24,000 nucleotides of DNA from Faecalimicrobium dakarense (GCF_000499525.1 NZ_HG529388.1:40202-64201); one strand, 5' to 3'; shown: positions 15,258-24,000, counted from the first letter of the stretch. Made by a program: numbers and translations. The notes: a model not told the origin generated them from the letters alone.

Positions 15258-15286
15258 TTGACAAAAAACTTTCATAGCATTAAAAT
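15258..15286 (+). promoter_or_regulatory. Strong SigA-type promoter of the deaminase cassette
   Basis: TTGACA at 15258-15263, exactly 17 nt of spacer, TAAAAT at 15281-15286. Confidence 0.65.
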
Positions 15287-15499
15287 TCTAATCTATATAA
15301 TCAAAAAATAAGAGGTATTTATGACAGAAATCTATAGGACATCAAATAATAGAAAAAACAAAGATTAAAAATTAATAACATAAATGATTTTAAAGATGCA
15401 TTAAGAAAAGAAGGATATAAAGAAATTGATTTAGAAGATATAGAATTTAAAGAAAATATAGCTAAAACTTTTAAAATAGATAATTCAGTAATAGATATT

Positions 15500-15838
15500 A
15501 TGTATAAATCTTTAAGTAATAATGATATTACCTATAGAGCAGATAATGTTAATGATTTTATAGAGTATATGAAAAATATAAGGTCATTTCAAAATGAGCA
15601 TAGCAAGTTAAGTAAGAAAATAAACAAAATAAGTAAATTAAACATATCTAGAGTTGAGTATGAAAGAGTTACAAGTACCCAAGACGATGTTGACCATATG
15701 ATAAATGATATAGAAAAAATAAAAAGAACAGTATCTGAAAGAATAAATCCAAAAGATATTTATAGACTAGAAAGCTTAGAAAAACAATTAGATAAAGATT
15801 ATATTTATGCAAAAGATATTGAATTATTAAAAAGATGA
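15500..15838 (+). CDS. Hypothetical helical/coiled-coil protein. The real gene probably starts at 15321 and is frameshifted at 15353-15359
   Basis: 112-aa ORF with no SD in front of the ATG at 15500. The same frame is open back to 15353. An SD (agagg, 15311-15315) plus ATG 15321 opens a 15-codon ORF in the adjacent frame. ATGA overlap couples this gene to the next. Confidence 0.65.
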   Translation: MYKSLSNNDITYRADNVNDFIEYMKNIRSFQNEHSKLSKKINKISKLNISRVEYERVTSTQDDVDHMINDIEKIKRTVSERINPKDIYRLESLEKQLDKDYIYAKDIELLKR

Positions 15839-16452
15839 TTGTTACTGGAAGAGGAAATAAAAGAGAAGTATATAATAATGATACTAAAACTAAAATAATA
15901 TCAATAGAAATATCTGATGAGATTAATTGTGAATATATTCCAGCTAAACTAGGTAGTATAGAATATCACAATCATATAAAAAACAATATACCTAGAATGA
16001 AAAGACTAAGAAAAAATATTGATAAATATATGGTAGTTAATGAAGATGAAGATCAAACATTTAATATAAATCAAACAAAAACGCTACAAGATACAATAAA
16101 CATTGCTGTAGCAATATATGATAATAAAGAGTTTAAGGCAATAAGTGGTAGTAATGATGTAGTTGAATTTTGTACAGCACCAAAGGATAGAGATGCAATT
16201 TTTAAAAGTAGTAAGGTAAATAAGTTAGGAAAGTTAGGAATAGGATATAATCGAGTTAATGATAGTGAAAAAAAGATATTTGAAGAAATCCATAATCAAA
16301 TAGAATCTGGTAAAATTAAAAATCATGGAAATCTTACTTTGTATAGTAAATGGGAGCCATGTCCAAGTTGTTATTATGTAATTAGCCAGTTTTGTGAAAA
16401 GTATCAAAATATAAATGTACAGATAAAATATAGCAAAGAATATGGAGAGTAA
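15835..16452 (+). CDS. Divergent cytidine/adenosine-deaminase-fold (TadA/CDA-like) protein, putative toxin/effector
   Basis: 205 aa. The C-terminal half aligns by eye to E. coli TadA. IAVAIYDNKEFKAISGSN matches VGAVLVHNNRVIGEGWN. DSEKKIFEEI matches HAEIMALRQG. LTLYSKWEPCPSCYYVI matches ATLYVTLEPCVMCAGAM. DSE is encoded at 16261-16269 and PCPSC at 16357-16371, 32 residues apart versus 29 in TadA. Confidence 0.7.
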   Translation: MIVTGRGNKREVYNNDTKTKIISIEISDEINCEYIPAKLGSIEYHNHIKNNIPRMKRLRKNIDKYMVVNEDEDQTFNINQTKTLQDTINIAVAIYDNKEFKAISGSNDVVEFCTAPKDRDAIFKSSKVNKLGKLGIGYNRVNDSEKKIFEEIHNQIESGKIKNHGNLTLYSKWEPCPSCYYVISQFCEKYQNINVQIKYSKEYGE

Positions 16453-16565
16453 AACTTAATTATAATATAACCCAAAAAATAGAATGTGCCTAAAAGTGAG
16501 ATACTAAGTATATAAACTCATAAAACTTAGCAAAATATATATATAATTTTGAAAAGGAGAAATCT

Positions 16566-16874
16566 ATGAAAAAATATACTTTTAATACTAGAGATGAACT
16601 CGTAGAATTTTTAGATAAACATAATTTTAAATACTATGTTCCGAGGTTAAGAGAGTACATGAGCAATATTAAAGATGAGTTTAAGCATTATTATGTAGAG
16701 CTATCAGATTCTCATGAAGTAAAATATTGTGGCATTGTATCTATTACAGGTGGAGAAGAGTTTGAAGAGAATTTCTTTGACATTAATAAAGTTATTGAGT
16801 TTGAAGATACTGCTTATAATAGAATATATAGAGAGAAGAAGTATAAAGAAGGCATTGAAAATGAATATTTTTAA
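16566..16874 (+). CDS. Small acidic hypothetical protein, candidate immunity/antitoxin partner
   Basis: 102 aa, rich in Glu/Asp. SD 'aaaggaga' 6 nt before the ATG. Last gene before the cassette terminator. I recognise no family. Confidence 0.6.
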   Translation: MKKYTFNTRDELVEFLDKHNFKYYVPRLREYMSNIKDEFKHYYVELSDSHEVKYCGIVSITGGEEFEENFFDINKVIEFEDTAYNRIYREKKYKEGIENEYF

Positions 16875-16893
16875 ATGACTAGTAATAAAATAT

Positions 16894-16925
16894 AAATGGA
16901 GGGCAATGCTCTCCATTTTTGTTTT
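16894..16925 (+). terminator. Rho-independent terminator of the deaminase cassette
   Basis: Stem 16894-16904 pairs with 16908-16918 (aaatggagggc / gctctccattt, one G-U pair) around a 3-nt loop. Followed by tttttgtttt. Confidence 0.85.
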
Positions 16926-18633: not shown

Positions 18634-19005
18634 ATGAAAATACTTGAAACAACAAAAGCACCAGGAGCTATTGGACCTTACTCTCAAGGATATAAAATAG
18701 GAGATTTTGTATTTACATCAGGTCAAATACCAGTAAATCCAGAAGATGGATCTGTACCTACGGGGATATCATCACAGGCAGAACAAAGTTGTAAAAATGT
18801 TAAAGCTATATTAGAATCAGCAGGCGCTAATTTTGAACATGTATTTAAAACTACATGCTTTTTAGCTGATATGGCAGATTTTGCAGCTTTTAATGAGGTA
18901 TATGCAAAATACTTTATATCTAATCCAGCTCGTAGCTGTGTGGCAGTTAAAGAATTACCAAAAGGTGTGCTTTGTGAGATAGAAGCCATAGCTGTCATAA
19001 AATAA
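18634..19005 (+). CDS. ridA: RidA/YjgF/TdcF-family reactive enamine/imine deaminase
   Basis: 123 aa. Canonical APGAIGPYSQG...FTSGQIP N-terminus. Conserved Arg in NPARSCV. C-terminal LPKGVLCEIEAIA. Confidence 0.9.
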   Translation: MKILETTKAPGAIGPYSQGYKIGDFVFTSGQIPVNPEDGSVPTGISSQAEQSCKNVKAILESAGANFEHVFKTTCFLADMADFAAFNEVYAKYFISNPARSCVAVKELPKGVLCEIEAIAVIK

Positions 19006-19024
19006 TTTAATATTAATTATATAA

Positions 19025-19055
19025 ATAAGTCACTTTTTATAAGTGGCTTATTTTT
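19025..19055 (+). terminator. Rho-independent terminator of ridA
   Basis: Stem ataagtcactt (19025-19035) / aagtggcttat (19041-19051) with one G-U pair, 5-nt loop, then a T5 run. Confidence 0.8.
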
Positions 19056-19060
19056 ATTAA

Positions 19061-19183
19061 GCCAGACTACGGGAGGAAACCGAGATACGTGCAAATCAGG
19101 CCACTTGTTTTACAGAAGATGCAGATGAAGCTTTAAGCAGGGCGTTAGAATTAAATGCTAGTAATTCACTTGCTTTTAAATAG
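19061..19183 (+). pseudogene. Orphan 3' gene remnant, TPR-like C-terminus
   Basis: 40-codon open frame with no start codon: ARLREETEIRANQATCFTEDADEALSRALELNASNSLAFK*. The tail resembles a TPR repeat consensus. Local GC (gccagactacgggaggaaaccgagatacgtgc) is far above the surroundings. Confidence 0.3.
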
Positions 19184-19540
19184 GAATTATATAAACTGTA
19201 GATAGACACAATAAAACTGTACAAGAAAAGGTAAATTTAATTTCATGTACAGTTATTGATATAAATACTTTGTGCTTTTTTATTTTTTTATCTTCCGTAT
19301 AGCCATAGTCTATGAACTTTTAATGTTTTTTTCCATAGCCTTTACTTTTTTCACATATAATAATTCGTCTAAACTCAACATTACGATTTACATTTTCTAT
19401 TCCCGCTAAAATCAAGTATCATACTGGATTATGTGGCTGGAAAAATAAAAAAATCGATAGTAAAATATATATATAAACATAGTATTTGGAACAGCTTAGA
19501 GTACATTTTTCAACAATGAATGACATAATAATAATACCTA

Positions 19541-19569
19541 TTGACATTAAAGCCAGTCCAAGGTTTAAT
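19541..19569 (+). promoter_or_regulatory. Possible SigA-type promoter of the triple-RidA gene
   Basis: TTGACA at 19541-19546, 17-nt spacer, TTTAAT at 19564-19569. Confidence 0.4.
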
Positions 19570-19629
19570 ATTTAATTAGAGGGGTTTTAATAATTCTATC
19601 AATAAATATGGCAAAAGGGGAATATTATC

Positions 19630-20898
19630 ATGAATAACTATAACACAGTATTATCAAGAAACTCGGAAAATGTTATCAAAGACTCTGTATCTTCGCAAAC
19701 TGTAGCTTTCTCTCATTACAATAATCTTTCAGCTCAATTACCTATTGATCAAGAAACTGGTGAATTAGTAGCTGGTGGTGTAAAAGAGCAGGCCAAACAG
19801 TGCTTTGAAAACATCAAGTCAATTGTAGAAAGCATCGATCATGTTATGAATGATGTTGTTAGAATCACTGTATTCGTTAAGAATATAAAAGATATGGATG
19901 CTGTAGACGAAGTTTATAAAACGTTCTTCCCAAGCTATGTACCTACACGTACGGTAGTAGCAGTTGCAGCTTTACCTATGGATGCTTTAGTTCAAATTGA
20001 AGCACTTGTTTCAAACGCTGAAGGTACAATTCCAAACGCACCACAAGCAGGGGACATAATAAAGCTTACAAATAACACAGCAAATGCGCCAATAAGCTCT
20101 CTATCTTCACAAACTGTAGCTTTTTCTCATTACAATAATCTTTCAGCTCAATTACCTATAGATCCAAAATCAGGTAGAGTTGTAGCTGGTGGTGTAAAAG
20201 AGCAGGCTGGACAATGCTTAAAGAATATCAAGGCAATTTTAGAAAGTATCGACGTTCCTTTTGACGATATTGTTAAAATTAATATATTCCTTAAAAATAT
20301 TTCAGATATTGAAGCAGTAAACGAGGTTTATACAACATTCTTCCCAGACTCAGCTATCGCAAGGTCAGTAGCCTATGTACCTGCACGTACAGTAGTTGAG
20401 GCTTCAGCTTTACCTATGGATGCTTTGGTACAAATTGAAGCAGTAGTGTCACACGGAGATGGAACACCTCCACAAGCTGTTGAAGATAGGCATGGACTAA
20501 TTATAGAAGCAAACAATACGGAGAATGCACCAAAAAGTTCTCTACATACACAAACTGTAGCTTTCTCTCATTACAATCATCTTTCAGCTCAATTACCTTT
20601 AGATGCAAAAACTGGTGAAATGGTAGATGGTGGTGTAAAAGAACAGGCAAAGCAGTGCTTAAATAATATCAAGGCAATTATAGAAAGCGTTGACCACGTT
20701 ATGGACGATGTAGTTAAGGTAAACGTATTCCTTAAAAATATTGAAGATATGGACGCTGTAAACGAAGTTTACACAACATTCTTCCCAAGTGGTGCTCCTG
20801 CACGAAGAATAGTTGGGGTATCAGCTTTACCTAAAGATGCTTTAGTACAAATAGATGTAGTTGTATCAAATGCTGAAGGAACACCTCCAAAAGCATAA
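19630..20898 (+). CDS. Fusion protein of three tandem RidA/YjgF-family domains
   Basis: 422 aa. Three units each carry SxQTVAFSHYN(N/H)LSAQLP(I/L)D...GGVKEQA(K/G)QC...(A/S)ALP(M/K)DALVQI(E/D). The Arg equivalent to the RidA catalytic Arg is present in all three (PTRT, PARTV, PARRI). SD 'aagggg' upstream. Confidence 0.85.
   Translation: MNNYNTVLSRNSENVIKDSVSSQTVAFSHYNNLSAQLPIDQETGELVAGGVKEQAKQCFENIKSIVESIDHVMNDVVRITVFVKNIKDMDAVDEVYKTFFPSYVPTRTVVAVAALPMDALVQIEALVSNAEGTIPNAPQAGDIIKLTNNTANAPISSLSSQTVAFSHYNNLSAQLPIDPKSGRVVAGGVKEQAGQCLKNIKAILESIDVPFDDIVKINIFLKNISDIEAVNEVYTTFFPDSAIARSVAYVPARTVVEASALPMDALVQIEAVVSHGDGTPPQAVEDRHGLIIEANNTENAPKSSLHTQTVAFSHYNHLSAQLPLDAKTGEMVDGGVKEQAKQCLNNIKAIIESVDHVMDDVVKVNVFLKNIEDMDAVNEVYTTFFPSGAPARRIVGVSALPKDALVQIDVVVSNAEGTPPKA
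19696..20895 (+). repeat. Three intragenic tandem repeats of about 414 and 441 nt
   Basis: The word caaactgtagcttt(c/t)tctcattacaat recurs at 19696, 20110 and 20551. Long stretches are near-identical at the nucleotide level (for example tctttcagctcaattacct and ggtggtgtaaaaga(g/a)cagg). Confidence 0.85.
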
Positions 20899-20985
20899 CA
20901 TGCATTTGTTTGTAAATACAGGAACTATCAAAGTTACTTGTTAATGGCGAAGGTGAATGCGAAATCACATATCCTAATAGTAAAG

Positions 20986-21029
20986 AAAGGGAGCTTAAAA
21001 TATTTTTTAGCTCTCTTTTTTTATTTTTC
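20986..21029 (+). terminator. Rho-independent terminator of the triple-RidA gene
   Basis: 10-bp stem aaagggagct (20986-20995) / agctctcttt (21009-21018) with one G-U pair, 13-nt loop, long T-run to 21029. Confidence 0.65.
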
Positions 21030-21031
21030 GT

Positions 21032-21347
21032 TTATGCTAAGAACTTTATTATTGGACCTTGAGCCTTTTGATCTAACCATTTGAGCAGCTAATTTTTTAG
21101 CCTAAGCTTTTGAGCCACTGTGTGGGCGACCCTACCTTTATATTCTTCAAACTTCAAAGTACCAGAGCTTCTAATCATTGCTTGCTCTGCTATAATCCAT
21201 GTTCTACATATCTTTTTAACATCTTCACCAGTATCAAAATTGATGTTTTGATTTGAGGTAATAACGGAAGTTGAAGTTATTATCGATCTTTTTATGCCGC
21301 TGTAAATAATCGTGATAAACCTTATTTGATGAAAAGATAAATATCAT
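21032..21347 (-). pseudogene. Degenerate gene remnant of unidentified family, with frameshift and internal stop
   Basis: Minus-strand translation gives MIFIFSSNKVYHDYLQRHKKIDNNFNFRYYLKSKHQF*. In another frame it gives NQNINFDTGEDVKKICRTWIIAEQAMIRSSGTLKFEEYKGRVAHTVAQKLRLKN*LLKWLDQKAQGPIIKFLA*. The text is protein-like but broken. A local GC-rich patch (ccactgtgtgggcgaccctacc) is present. Confidence 0.3.
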
Positions 21348-21498
21348 TGTCACCTAACTTGTTCTACCAAATGTGAGAAAGTTGTCCAAAGAACGCAAAA
21401 TATATGAGATATATTTATATATCTATCTCGGTATCCCCCGAACTAGATTAGAAAATATATAAAATCTTTTTAATTTAGTCAAATAAAATAGATTTAAT

Positions 21499-21574
21499 GG
21501 GGTAAACAGTACACCTATTAAACCGATTTATTTTGTTTATGGGTTAAACGCATAAGAAAATTTATTAGGTTAAA
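21499..21574. promoter_or_regulatory. Candidate enhancer (UAS) for a sigma-54 activator, related to 18398-18441
   Basis: GGGGTAAAC-a-GTACA-CCTATTAAACC at 21499-21524, GGTTAAACG at 21542-21550 and GGTTAAA again at 21568-21574. It lies 100-175 bp upstream of the -24 element. Confidence 0.5.
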
Positions 21575-21675
21575 AAATCAGTTAAAGAATAATATTATTC
21601 ATTAAACTTAAAATAAAAAATATTTTTATTGAAATCTCAATAATTTTGACATATATAATATAAAAAAATAAATTT

Positions 21676-21691
21676 TGGCACACATATTGCT
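21676..21691 (+). promoter_or_regulatory. Sigma-54 (-24/-12) promoter of the C-S lyase gene
   Basis: TGGCAC-acata-TTGCT is a perfect match to TGGCAC-N5-TTGCW. The predicted TSS near 21702 makes the ATG at 21703 an unlikely start. Confidence 0.75.
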
Positions 21692-21735
21692 ATATATGTA
21701 AGATGGAATTTAAAAACACTGGAGGTATAGCAATT

Positions 21736-22905
21736 ATGAGTTATAATTTTGATGCTGTAATTGACAGAAGTAACAACTTTGCAGCAAAGTGGTCAGAAAT
21801 GGATAAAAAATATGGTACTAATGATCTTTTACCTATGTGGGTAGCAGATATGGATTTTAAAACAGCACCATGTATAATTGATGCTCTTAAAAGTAGATTA
21901 GAACAAGGTATCTACGGATACACAACTAGACCTGCATCATACAATGAATCTATAGCAAACTGGTCAAAGAGAAGATATGGATGGAATATAAAACCGGAAT
22001 GGTTAATATTTAGCCCTGGAGTTATTCCAACTATAAGTATACTAATACAAGAGATGACTAAAGAAAATGATAAAATAATGATACAAGAACCAGTTTACAG
22101 TCCATTTAATAGTGTTGTAAAACAGAATAAAAGAGAGCTTGTAATAAGTCCATTAATTAAATTAGAAGATGGAAATTATGTTATGGACTATGAAGATATA
22201 GAATCAAAAATTAAAGATGTTAAAATATTTATACTTTGTAATCCTCACAACCCAGTAGGTAGAGTTTGGACTAAAGAAGAGTTAAAAAAATTAGGGGATA
22301 TATGTATTAAGCACAACGTATTGGTAATATCAGATGAAATACACAGTGATATAATATTTAAAAATCATAAACATATCCCATTTGGTTCAATAAGTGATGA
22401 ATTTGCACAAAATAGTATAACTTGTATGGCTCCAACAAAAACATTTAATATAGCTGGACTTCAAACATCTCAAGTTATATTGCCAAATGAAGAACACTAC
22501 AAGATACTAGATGATGCTTTTATAAGATTAGATATAAGAAGAAATAATGCATTTAGCTTAGTGGCTACAGAGGCAGCTTACAATCATGGAGAAGATTGGT
22601 TAAATGAATATCTTGAATATATAGAAGGAAATATTGATTTTGCTATAAATTATATAAATGAAAATATACCATCTTTAAAAGTTAAAAAGCCAGAAGGAAC
22701 ATATTTATTATGGGTAGACTTTAGTGATACTGGATTAAGTGATGAAGAAATTACAAAAGCTTTAGTTGAAAAAGGTAAAGTAGCTTTAAATAGTGGAGAC
22801 TCTTTTGGTACTGGTGGAAAAGGTTATCAAAGAATAAATATTGCATGTCCAAGATCTATGGTTGAAGGTGGGTTAAATAGAATTAGAGAAGCTATAATGA
22901 GTTAA
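21736..22905 (+). CDS. PatB/MalY-type PLP-dependent C-S lyase (cystathionine beta-lyase-like aminotransferase class I/II)
   Basis: MSYNFDAVIDRSNNFAAKWSEM is the typical PatB/MalY N-terminus. The PLP-lysine context MAPTKTFNIAGL (family pattern SxSKxFNxAG) is present. GGAGG at 21721-21725 precedes the ATG at 21736. The listed ORF start at 21703 adds 11 atypical residues. Confidence 0.85.
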   Translation: MSYNFDAVIDRSNNFAAKWSEMDKKYGTNDLLPMWVADMDFKTAPCIIDALKSRLEQGIYGYTTRPASYNESIANWSKRRYGWNIKPEWLIFSPGVIPTISILIQEMTKENDKIMIQEPVYSPFNSVVKQNKRELVISPLIKLEDGNYVMDYEDIESKIKDVKIFILCNPHNPVGRVWTKEELKKLGDICIKHNVLVISDEIHSDIIFKNHKHIPFGSISDEFAQNSITCMAPTKTFNIAGLQTSQVILPNEEHYKILDDAFIRLDIRRNNAFSLVATEAAYNHGEDWLNEYLEYIEGNIDFAINYINENIPSLKVKKPEGTYLLWVDFSDTGLSDEEITKALVEKGKVALNSGDSFGTGGKGYQRINIACPRSMVEGGLNRIREAIMS

Positions 22906-22907
22906 CC

Positions 22908-22941
22908 ATAATCTAGCTTAAATTTATTTAAGCTAGATTAT
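22908..22941. terminator. Perfect 16-bp-stem hairpin after the C-S lyase gene, no U-tract
   Basis: ataatctagcttaaat (22908-22923) and atttaagctagattat (22926-22941) are exact reverse complements. No T-run follows on the + strand, so its function as an intrinsic terminator is uncertain. Confidence 0.45.
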
Positions 22942-22949
22942 AATAATCT

Positions 22950-22963
22950 TGAAAACGTTATCG
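22950..22963 (+). promoter_or_regulatory. cre-like (CcpA) site upstream of the NhaC-family gene
   Basis: TGAAAACGTTATCG matches 13 of 14 positions of the Gram-positive cre consensus TGWAANCGNTNWCA. The core GAAAACGTTATC is close to the clostridial GAAAANGTTTTC. Confidence 0.35.
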
Positions 22964-23025
22964 AAAATATTTATAAAACAATTAAAAAATATTTTAAATA
23001 GAATAAAAATGGGTGGAGAGCTAAT

Positions 23026-24000
23026 ATGAATAAAAATATAGAAAAAAGAAAACCTACATTTAAGTTTGCAGCATTAGTAATGATTGCAATTATATCTTTA
23101 ACTACAGTTGGTATGGTTGTATTTAAAGCATCTATAACAACAATGTTTTTATTATCATGGTTAATAGTAGTACCAGCAGCAATGAAATTAGGATACACTA
23201 ATAGCGAAATTGAGGATTTAGGATTTGAAGTAGGAAAGGGCGCTTTTCAATCTAATTTAATTATACTTTCTGTAGGAGTATTAATTGCTACTTGGATAGC
23301 AGCAGGTACTATTCCTACAATAGTTTACGGTGGACTTACAATAATAACACCTAAATATTTCTTAGTTACAACATTACTAGTGTGTTCGTTAACATCTATA
23401 GCTACAGGAACTTCTTGGGGTACTTTAGGAACTTCTGGTATAGCTTTAATGAGTATTGGTACTAGTATGGGAGTTCCAGGTGGTTTAACAGCTGGTGCAA
23501 TAATATCTGGTGCATTTTTCGGTGATAAGATATCACCACTTTCAGATTCTACAAACCTAGCAGCTGCAGTTTGTAAAACAAATGTTATGACTCATATAAA
23601 ACACATGGTTTCGTCAACACTTCCAGCTTATATAATTTGTATTGTTTTATATACAGTTATAGGATTTAAATATGCTAACAACACTATAGACTACAATCAA
23701 ATAAATCAAGTAATGGAAGTTTTAAATACTAACTTTCATATCGGTTTTGTTGCTATAATTCCAATAATATTTTTATTTACTTTATTATTGTTACAAAAGC
23801 CAGCCATAGTGTCTATACTAGCTTCTGGAGCATTAGGTGCAGTTATTGCATTTTTCCAAGAAGGAGAAAGTATTAATAGCTTATTAAATGCTATGCTTAA
23901 TGGTTTTTCTATAGATACAGGTCTTACTTATACAGACCAATTACTGAACCGTGGAGGTATAATGAGCATGGCTGAAACTGTACTATTAGTATTTATAGTA
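23026..24000 (+). CDS. nhaC: NhaC-family Na+/H+ antiporter-like transporter, 3' end cut by window edge
   Basis: Open frame from ATG 23026 (SD ggtggagag at 23012-23020) to the window end, 325 codons with no stop. It is absent from the ORF track for that reason. Polytopic, with NhaC-like segments GTSWGTLGTSGIALM and GAFFGDKISPLSDSTNLAA. Confidence 0.8.
   Translation, partial: MNKNIEKRKPTFKFAALVMIAIISLTTVGMVVFKASITTMFLLSWLIVVPAAMKLGYTNSEIEDLGFEVGKGAFQSNLIILSVGVLIATWIAAGTIPTIVYGGLTIITPKYFLVTTLLVCSLTSIATGTSWGTLGTSGIALMSIGTSMGVPGGLTAGAIISGAFFGDKISPLSDSTNLAAAVCKTNVMTHIKHMVSSTLPAYIICIVLYTVIGFKYANNTIDYNQINQVMEVLNTNFHIGFVAIIPIIFLFTLLLLQKPAIVSILASGALGAVIAFFQEGESINSLLNAMLNGFSIDTGLTYTDQLLNRGGIMSMAETVLLVFIV

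Follow-up and report, generated by a model that had tools for sequence, protein, structure and literature searches.

The BURPS668_1122 clade of the zinc-dependent deaminases (Pfam PF14424, 'Toxin-deaminase') has been described from the C-terminal tips of secreted polymorphic toxins, i.e., those of the type II, V, VI and VII secretion systems (T2SS, T5SS, T6SS, T7SS) and of the RHS and CdiA types, and behind these toxins stand immunity genes of the Imm2, Imm3 or SUKH families (PMC3239186). For tested members of the clade, cytidine deaminase activity on single-stranded DNA (ssDNA) has been reported (bioRxiv 10.1101/2023.05.21.541555). In this work, we have analysed positions 15258–16925 of a stretch of 24,000 nucleotides from Faecalimicrobium dakarense (GCF_000499525.1 NZ_HG529388.1:40202-64201), the whole of which is called the window below. 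A first-pass annotation had seen here a self-contained cassette of three open reading frames, in which a sensor or regulator (ORF1) is coupled to a deaminase toxin (ORF2) and followed by a neutraliser (ORF3). Our analyses do not support a toxin-immunity or abortive-infection cassette. Instead, the interval very probably consists of two unrelated transcription units, that is, a frameshifted orphan gene of a PF14424 deaminase (15258–16452) and an independent ORF3 (~16495–16925).

Gene structure and the two frame breaks

The coordinates of the three ORFs, 15500–15838, 15835–16452 and 16566–16874, are correct for the sequence as it is written. As judged from the homologues, however, a short ORF at 15321, ORF1 and ORF2 are pieces of one gene. 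A protein search with ORF2, which is 205 amino acids (aa) long, has found 61 relatives, many of them of 250–359 aa and covering the entire query, and the N-terminal halves of the longer ones match ORF1 together with the start-less stretch upstream of it. When four full-length homologues were compared with the window by tblastn, each gave two co-linear segments in different frames, which meet at 15820–15823. The treatment of ORF1 and ORF2 as separate proteins was dropped once the homologues had proved to be single proteins of 350–380 aa; searched in Pfam by itself, ORF1 yields nothing beyond coiled-coil and HEPN noise below the threshold.

The closest orthologue is an intact gene of 377 codons in Romboutsia lituseburensis DSM 797 (locus L011, 6001–7134), with 86% amino-acid and 89% nucleotide identity. 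Compared with it, the DNA of the window has exactly two one-base gaps, both in poly-A runs. At site 1 (15353–15358, plus strand), a run of six A's stands against seven in the orthologue, the DNA being otherwise near-identical. At site 2 (15829–15833, plus strand), five A's stand against six, and this gap creates the apparent stop of ORF1 and its ATGA overlap with ORF2. After restoring the two missing A's, the deaminase gene runs over 377 codons from 15321 to 16452 on the plus strand and encodes a family-specific N-terminal region followed by a BURPS668_1122-clade deaminase domain; in the unrepaired sequence, the two single-A deletions divide the gene into the pieces 15321–15368, 15500–15838 and 15835–16452.

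The start of the repaired gene agrees with this structure. The ATG at 15321 is well placed behind a Shine-Dalgarno sequence read as AAGAGG (15310–15315, plus strand, 5 nt before the ATG), yet as written it opens an ORF of only 15 codons. Conversely, the frame of ORF1 is open back to 15353 but has its first start codon only at 15500, and with site 1 unrepaired there is no start codon ahead of the conserved KKQRLKINNINDF stretch. Over its whole length, from the conserved MT...KK.R.KI start onwards, the repaired protein can be aligned with 20 homologues that are single ORFs. Across site 2, the homologues read straight through as ...DIELLKKMI..., with D166, E168, L169 and K171 invariant, and therefore the ATGA, which had been taken as translational coupling between two genes, is the second frameshift site.

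For the family as a whole, the gene is a single uninterrupted frame in 81 of the 83 other loci, mostly of 371–379 codons, in Clostridium, Romboutsia and related genomes. Separate conserved genes resembling ORF1 and ORF2 have not been seen at any of the 83. The first-pass annotation had staked its cassette beforehand on the co-occurrence of the three genes in other genomes; what is found there is ORF1 and ORF2 fused, at these 81 loci, and ORF3 unlinked. Rather than a separate sensor, ORF1 is the N-terminal portion of this one polypeptide, severed by the frameshift. For the ORF2 product, RefSeq has a protein with 100% identity from [Clostridium] dakarense, a species that is now named Faecalimicrobium dakarense and belongs to the Peptostreptococcaceae. 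This fragment of 205 aa (P0001) passes in RefSeq and UniRef for a full 'deaminase domain-containing protein', which means that the frameshift has truncated the public annotation as well.

Two explanations of the frame breaks seem to us about equally likely: either homopolymer under-calls in 454 sequencing, so that the organism itself has an intact gene, or pseudogenisation at a very recent time. Under-calls of this kind are the characteristic error of the 454 method. The sole published genome of the species (C. dakarense FF1) comes from one 454 GS FLX Titanium library at 35x (PMC3910555). The repaired frame is fully open with no other stop, and comparison with R. lituseburensis gives a ratio of non-synonymous to synonymous substitution rates (dN/dS) of 0.19 overall, the value for the deaminase domain being 0.11. 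The low ratio and the open frame would argue for an artefact and against an old pseudogene.

At only two of the 83 other loci is the gene likewise broken, one in Clostridium senegalense JC122 (L084) and one in L089. The breaks of the former (L084:6340-6600) lie in A-rich, poly-A sequence, while the break region of the latter is 650–720. We take JC122 to be another 454 genome from the same laboratory, and the A-rich deaminase gene could be a hotspot for homopolymer errors, as these cases hint. The gene is also broken on the metagenome contigs L091 and L092, where the neighbouring genes are likewise in pieces, which suggests that these are error-prone assemblies.

Site 1 with its flanks (15351–15359) reads AGA-AAA-AAC in the frame of 15321 and contains A_AAA_AAC, the classical −1 slippery heptamer. 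It may be asked whether the breaks are functional, so that programmed −1 frameshifting or phase variation in the poly-A runs keeps a dangerous enzyme at a low or switchable level. Indeed, a −1 slip at this heptamer yields exactly the sequence of the family, slippage-prone A runs are present at both breaks, and the repaired frame is otherwise perfectly open. We regard this explanation as highly improbable nonetheless, and the heptamer is probably a coincidence of the A-run. Programmed frameshifting is unlikely because the 81 single-frame orthologues need no frameshift, which means that it is no property of the family. In addition, site 2 (A_AAA_AGA) is not a standard slippery heptamer, and the other broken copies are those of JC122, the noisy contigs with split neighbour genes, and L089.

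The deaminase domain and its N-terminal region

The C-terminal domain (residues 211–377; 15949–16449, plus strand) matches PF14424 with an E-value of 6.9e-34 and 117.5 bits against a cut-off of 29.6, the match covering residues 247–373 of the protein and positions 3–146 of the 146 in the profile. PF14424 is also precomputed on all homologues from the ORF2 search. The zinc-deaminase fold that had been proposed for ORF2 is thus borne out by this match, as it is by the structural comparison with APOBEC proteins described below, while the earlier statement that none of the three proteins could be matched to a named family does not hold for ORF2. NCBIfam and PHROGs gave no match to the deaminase, and the viral structure library gave no significant one.

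The catalytic motifs can be read directly. In the alignment of 21 sequences, R312, D315, S316, E317, K318 and K319 are invariant and form an RxxDxExK motif (R312-V-N-D315-S-E317-K-K319), within which D315-S-E317 (16261–16269, plus strand) is the DxE motif. Conservation is at least 90% for W345, P347, C348 and C351, which include the PCxxC motif P347-C348-P-S-C351 (C348-P-S-C351 at 16360–16371, plus strand). The second residue after the last Cys of CxxC is Tyr, compared with Ser in the described CxxCxS form. The catalytic residues of the PF14424 domain are all conserved under purifying selection.

In the AlphaFold2 model of the repaired protein, which is a confident one (predicted local distance difference test, pLDDT, 89.3; predicted template modelling score, pTM, 0.82), the motifs lie on the expected strands and helices. 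The model shows the strands IAVAIY and KEFKAI, the helix SEKKIFEEI, the strand LTLYSKWE and the helix PSCYYVISQF, at the segments that the first-pass annotation had named, so its placement of the deaminase elements was correct. The DxE motif is at the start of helix 316–329 and PCxxC at the start of helix 349–361. Between strand 270–275 and helix 316–329, model and alignment place an insert of ~40 residues (276–315) with a conserved KVNKLGxLGxGYxR.

The DxE motif, its setting within RxxDxExK and the insertion that separates strand 2 from helix 2 agree with the published description of the BURPS668_1122 clade, where the clade was first described in polymorphic toxins (PMC3239186); the earlier link of this deaminase to such toxins is confirmed to that extent. 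The likeness extends to the score of the hidden Markov model, far above the gathering threshold, to PCxxC, though not in its extended CxxCxS form, to DxE standing in place of HxE or CxE, and to the short C-terminus with little beyond the last strand. The 'divergent' character that had been ascribed to the deaminase is a real feature, yet it is the hallmark of this clade.

On the other hand, the Clostridium-type family, as we call the full-length homologues here, differs from the described BURPS668_1122 toxins in having no trafficking domain, signal peptide, alternative tips or adjacent immunity gene, and in having an N-terminal region of its own of ~210 residues, apparently packed on the deaminase domain. 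Polymorphic toxin systems, according to the criteria of Zhang, Aravind et al. from 2012, are said to be recognised by a trafficking domain or signal peptide, swappable C-terminal toxins, and a downstream immunity gene. Here, we have found no secretion domain or signal peptide, no swapped tips, and no co-conserved immunity gene downstream. The repaired protein also has no hydrophobic segment, the maximum Kyte-Doolittle average over 19 residues being 0.48, and it is therefore predicted to be soluble and cytoplasmic.

In structure, the domain resembles the AID/APOBEC enzymes most. Foldseek against PDB returned APOBEC3G, 3C, 3H, APOBEC1 or AID for all of the top 39 matches, with probabilities of 0.9–1.0 but E-values of only 6e-3 or weaker, the better-scoring ones being aligned over ~120–130 columns. 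When solved structures were searched by sequence, the best matches were to the same families, though weak (E 4e-4), and the AID/APOBEC Pfam models NAD1, SNAD4, APOBEC_N and APOBEC2 score 27–33 bits, just above their cut-offs. A strand-helix segment W-x-P-C-x-x-C is shared over ~38 aligned residues. A further likeness is that AID/APOBEC proteins are cytoplasmic or nuclear enzymes which work without an immunity protein. In contrast, the first zinc ligand is Asp (D315) in the Clostridium-type family, where AID/APOBEC has the His of H-x-E, and PF14424, the best model, scores ~85 bits above any APOBEC model. Iyer et al. 2011 assigned the two groups to different divisions, with BURPS668_1122 in the C-terminal-hairpin division and AID/APOBEC in the helix-4 division (PMC3239186).

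Other deaminases of bacteria are also worth comparing. DddA (BaDTF1, SCP1.201-like), SsdA (BaDTF2, DYW-like) and DddB (BaDTF3, Pput_2613-like) are zinc cytosine deaminases of the same superfamily that act on DNA, an action that the Clostridium-type deaminase may share. The SCP1.201 clade has been described as the closest relative of BURPS668_1122 (PMC3239186). However, the three belong to different clades and are all delivered by secretion systems, and they are neutralised by an adjacent acidic immunity protein that mimics DNA (PMC7901873, PMC13346905), whereas no adjacent immunity partner has been found for the Clostridium-type deaminase. The dCTP deaminase, AvcD/AvcI and RdrB of RADAR are similar to it as intracellular deaminase effectors, some of them in systems of one or two genes, but they come from other deaminase clades and act on free nucleotides (dCTP/dCMP; ATP/dATP for RADAR). 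Such anti-phage deaminases usually lie in defence islands, unlike the gene studied here, which also has no PADLOC match. Overall, on the basis of its sequence, the Clostridium-type deaminase is a bona fide member of the PF14424 clade, yet it is neither part of a polymorphic toxin system nor of a known defence system.

The N-terminal region (residues 1–210; 15321–15948, plus strand) is modelled as a mixed alpha/beta fold and is found only in the deaminase family. Pfam has no domain in residues 1–246 of the repaired protein. A profile of these residues, searched against 1.84 billion representative proteins, gave 41 matches, all of them members of the deaminase family or fragments; the full-length ones have 349–379 aa, and the shorter ones are called fragments by their appearance rather than by individual checking. 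Among the 41, none joins the N-terminal region to another C-terminal toxin domain. With the isolated N-terminal model, Foldseek found nothing better than E ~1 in PDB, and the profile found only de-novo TIM-barrel noise among the PDB sequences. As none of the profile, PDB and Foldseek searches gave such a match, a known trafficking or sensor domain was rejected. When residues 1–207 are modelled alone, pLDDT is 76, compared with ~89 in the full-length model, which suggests that the N-terminal region packs against the deaminase domain.

Gene neighbourhood and the separate status of ORF3

To see the gene in its contexts, we have used a scan with one genome per species, which gave 84 relatives, and neighbourhood counts cover 80 of these 84. 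The hosts are Clostridium sensu stricto (beijerinckii, butyricum, tertium, sardiniense, neonatale, disporicum and others), Sarcina, Romboutsia and other Peptostreptococcaceae. In ~80 species, the intact orthologues appear from their layout to be a monocistronic, stand-alone gene. The flanking gaps have medians of ~160–180 bp. In 23 of 76 loci, the next gene downstream is read from the other strand, and a same-strand gene within 60 bp downstream is present in only 5 of the 76.

Clustering all flanking ORFs of the 80 loci has revealed no conserved partner gene. The commonest neighbour family is an ABC-F ATPase (16 of 80 loci), followed by thrS (12 loci), LysR and RpiR regulators, and glgB; these recurrent neighbours reflect local synteny within subclades and have no functional theme. 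Divergent immunity genes were considered as well, among the unclustered small ORFs downstream of the 80 orthologues, and this idea was rejected, as those scanned are ordinary regulators, redox proteins and similar, or have no Pfam match. Specifically, 17 of the 19 small same-strand ORFs downstream were scanned, and they are thioredoxin, helix-turn-helix (HTH), PadR, BlaI, TetR, HxlR, glutathione peroxidase (GSHPx), LigT-like and methyltransferase proteins or match nothing in Pfam, with no Imm2, Imm3 or SUKH among the 17.

The first-pass annotation had also considered a defence-island or anti-phage module. PADLOC matched no family, however, and the genes around are for ordinary transport and metabolism, so the setting is not that of a defence island. 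In the window, they encode glucuronate isomerase, TRAP and iron ABC transporters, a coenzyme A (CoA)-enzyme activase, cupins, RidA proteins and an aminotransferase, and the flanking genes of the interval are an M48 peptidase and a ClC channel, as had been stated. By tblastn, the deaminase has no match in the plasmid and phage collections. Among the Romboutsia copies, identity ranges from 46% to 86%, which is not simply vertical.

Several apparent variants of the family turned out to be artefacts when the 'short forms', i.e., database entries of 145–205 aa, were checked. A form of 197 aa in the protein database (P0035, 66 members) is caused by an N-gap inside the scaffold L093 and is not a natural truncation, the short forms of L091 and L092 are from the contigs with fragmented neighbour genes, and the apparent tandem fragments of L033, L036 and L073 are HxlR genes, which an ORF call that ran too far had attached to the family. 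On the metagenome scaffold L093 (119–1700), the deaminase gene lies beside a divergent RRXRR+HNH gene (IscB-like by Pfam), which is followed by a GC-richer non-coding stretch.

ORF3 (16566–16874, plus strand) is an independent conserved gene outside the deaminase unit; its protein of 102 aa belongs to a tightly conserved family of Peptostreptococcaceae. The homologues number 35 and mostly have 102 aa, with identities of 57–85% for those of full length, and come from Paraclostridium sordellii, Romboutsia and Clostridium sp. CCUG 7971. They occur in at least four contexts overall, in three of which, other than the present one, they stand alone and none is with a deaminase. Tblastn has found no ORF3 homologue at any of the 83 deaminase loci, and in the sample SRR29119121 the deaminase and an ORF3 homologue are on separate contigs. 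That is, ORF3 adjoins the deaminase gene only in this genome, where it is apparently a chance neighbour, and the cassette is not self-contained.

Moreover, ORF3 carries conserved signals of its own. Its leader or promoter region (16495–16565, plus strand) aligns upstream of ORF3 homologues in three other genomes with different upstream neighbours, so that ~85 nt upstream of the start codon are conserved across four genomes despite the different upstream genes. The strong terminator that had been noted at the end of the interval is confirmed at 16894–16918 (plus strand), with an 11-bp stem and a T tract, and terminator-type sites are two in the region against 0.2 expected. Since the same hairpin stands behind the homologue of Clostridium sp. 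CCUG 7971, the terminator belongs to ORF3's own unit. For the protein itself (isoelectric point, pI, 5.1), no match was found in Pfam, PADLOC, NCBIfam or PDB, including a profile search against the PDB sequences; the sole Pfam match at E up to 1 is a chance match of 15 bits to an iron-sulfur (Fe-S) motif.

How does the three-gene toxin-antitoxin or abortive-infection module stand in view of these data? In its favour, the clade occurs in toxins that have immunity genes beside them (PMC3239186), ORF3 is small and acidic, and acidic immunity proteins that mimic DNA are known for other deaminase toxins (PMC13346905). Against this, ORF1 and ORF2 form one gene almost everywhere, the deaminase loci have no ORF3 homologue, ORF3 homologues occur without the deaminase and with their own conserved leader, no Imm2, Imm3 or SUKH family matches ORF3 in Pfam, and the neighbourhood is an ordinary one without a PADLOC match. 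ORF3 as an immunity protein has therefore been rejected on its distribution and on the Pfam result, the neutraliser role being unsupported by any genomic criterion, and we give the module as a whole hardly any credence.

Several points weigh against our own reading of two units with a frameshifted deaminase gene. No terminator has been detected between the deaminase gene and ORF3, which also favours the three-gene module, and read-through co-transcription in F. dakarense is therefore possible. An immunity gene may possibly lie elsewhere in the genome. As to random sequencing error, the other coding regions of the window contain 156 homopolymer runs of at least 5 bases without any frameshift, and the probability that both of two random errors fall in the deaminase gene is ~0.004–0.01; one assembly alone does not separate an artefact from a real pseudogene. 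Finally, it is only by inference that we assign the substrate, the activity and the role of the N-terminal region.

The promoter-like site upstream of the deaminase gene (TTGACA-N17-TAAAAT, 15258–15286, plus strand), as it had been proposed, is of the sigma-A type; it agrees with the consensus at 11 of 12 positions and ranks first in the region, and its function is putative. Promoter-like sites are not enriched there (14 found against 20 expected). The R. lituseburensis orthologue keeps the same −35 hexamer, spacer and −10 hexamer almost base for base, and TTGACA is also present upstream in a metagenome-assembled genome (MAG) of Peptostreptococcaceae (L012). Over 74 loci, the upstream regions have sigma-A-like −10 elements and a strong ribosome-binding site, and the AAGAGGT-N4-5-ATG arrangement recurs in most orthologous loci. 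A sporulation-type promoter was set aside, as no conserved alternative-sigma motif was evident by eye in the 74 loci, without a formal motif search. In many Clostridium orthologues (L013-L069), a near-identical ...AAAGATAAGAGGTAAATATG is found in the ~25 nt immediately before the deaminase start codon, while the sequence further upstream differs. This AAAGATAAGAGGTAAATATG stretch may belong to the ribosome-binding region, which would then be strongly conserved, or it may be a short regulatory element.

As for the window in general, its GC content is ~0.22–0.38 and all its genes are on the plus strand. The interval had been called very AT-rich, which holds only modestly, with GC of 0.22–0.25 against 0.25–0.30 in the neighbouring genes. 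Downstream of a single-domain RidA gene (18634–19005), a protein of 422 aa (19630–20898) has three RidA (Ribonuc_L-PSP) stretches, a triple fusion that is unusual for a domain which normally forms trimers. Three stretches (19005–19630, 20898–21703 and 22905–24000) hold no listed ORF of at least 50 aa, except for one of 75 aa on the minus strand (22971–23198), and give no Rfam match at the gathering threshold. The first two could be regulatory leaders of the RidA-repeat and aminotransferase genes, and the last may hold a gene running off the window end.

Possible roles of the deaminase family

Based on the above analyses, we can propose what the intact protein may do, by analogy with related enzymes. 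It would hydrolytically deaminate cytosine in a polynucleotide inside the producing cell, most probably in ssDNA and possibly in RNA, ssDNA being favoured because of the tested members of the clade and the APOBEC-like fold. As no partner protein restrains the enzyme, the N-terminal region would be the best candidate for gating the activity or choosing the substrate. We put forward this mechanism, intracellular deamination of polynucleotide cytosine with N-terminal gating or targeting, as a tentative one that falls short of an even chance.

For the biological role, several answers can be considered. Restriction or regulated mutation is a possible but doubtful answer, domesticated editing of RNA or nucleotides an unlikely one, and the remainder of our expectation goes to something else. 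If it is a restriction factor, a single protein would act against phages or mobile elements as a counterpart of APOBEC3, in which the N-terminal region would detect infection or keep the enzyme switched off, and on activation the deaminase domain would mutate viral ssDNA or host nucleic acid. In fold and sequence, the enzyme is closest to the ssDNA deaminases APOBEC3, APOBEC1 and AID, and the domain comes from a clade of conflict systems (PMC3239186). With no immunity partner, self-restraint should be built into the protein, and the N-terminal region is unique to the family; the contexts also vary between species, as does the identity of the Romboutsia copies. These points make such a factor conceivable, though we lean against it. 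Neither PADLOC nor the plasmid and phage collections gave a match, no location in a defence island was seen and the recurrent neighbours are housekeeping genes (thrS, ABC-F ATPase, glgB), there is tight conservation of both length and sequence, with a stable synteny inside the subclades, and nothing relevant was found in the literature on anti-phage systems of an APOBEC-like or cytosine-deaminase kind.

Several of the same features can be read in another way, namely that the deaminase is a domesticated, non-toxic housekeeping or accessory enzyme which edits a specific RNA (tRNA or mRNA) or deaminates a nucleotide or small molecule. In favour of this are the monocistronic layout, with sigma-A-like promoters and strong sites for ribosome binding, the position among housekeeping genes, the fixed length under strong purifying selection, and the lack of an immunity gene. 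Nevertheless, this seems to us unlikely, as no characterised member of the clade is known in such a role and the tested PF14424 members act on ssDNA; no NCBIfam model matches either, and the gene is not essential, as judged from a patchy (and unquantified) list of species in which many related ones are missing.

For the window, the result is mainly corrective, since the attractive cassette is a parsing artefact of two homopolymer frameshifts and a chance neighbour. To our knowledge, the BURPS668_1122 clade has been discussed only as the tip of secreted toxins with a cognate immunity protein. What appears to be new is the orphan architecture, without immunity gene, of a toxin-type deaminase with a private N-terminal region in ~80 species. 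It is possible, but far from our expectation, that a toxin-type deaminase was domesticated in Clostridia as a widespread APOBEC-like enzyme of one polypeptide without need of an immunity protein, which under the control of an N-terminal fold not seen before acts on nucleic acid in its own cell and targets the ssDNA of phages and plasmids or, as a regulated mutator, the host genome. The family in any case raises the question of how the cell tolerates the enzyme and what the enzyme deaminates. Should the protein indeed be an active ssDNA deaminase that restrains itself, bacteria could have in it an analogue of the APOBEC restriction factors, and it could also serve as a compact new scaffold for base editors.

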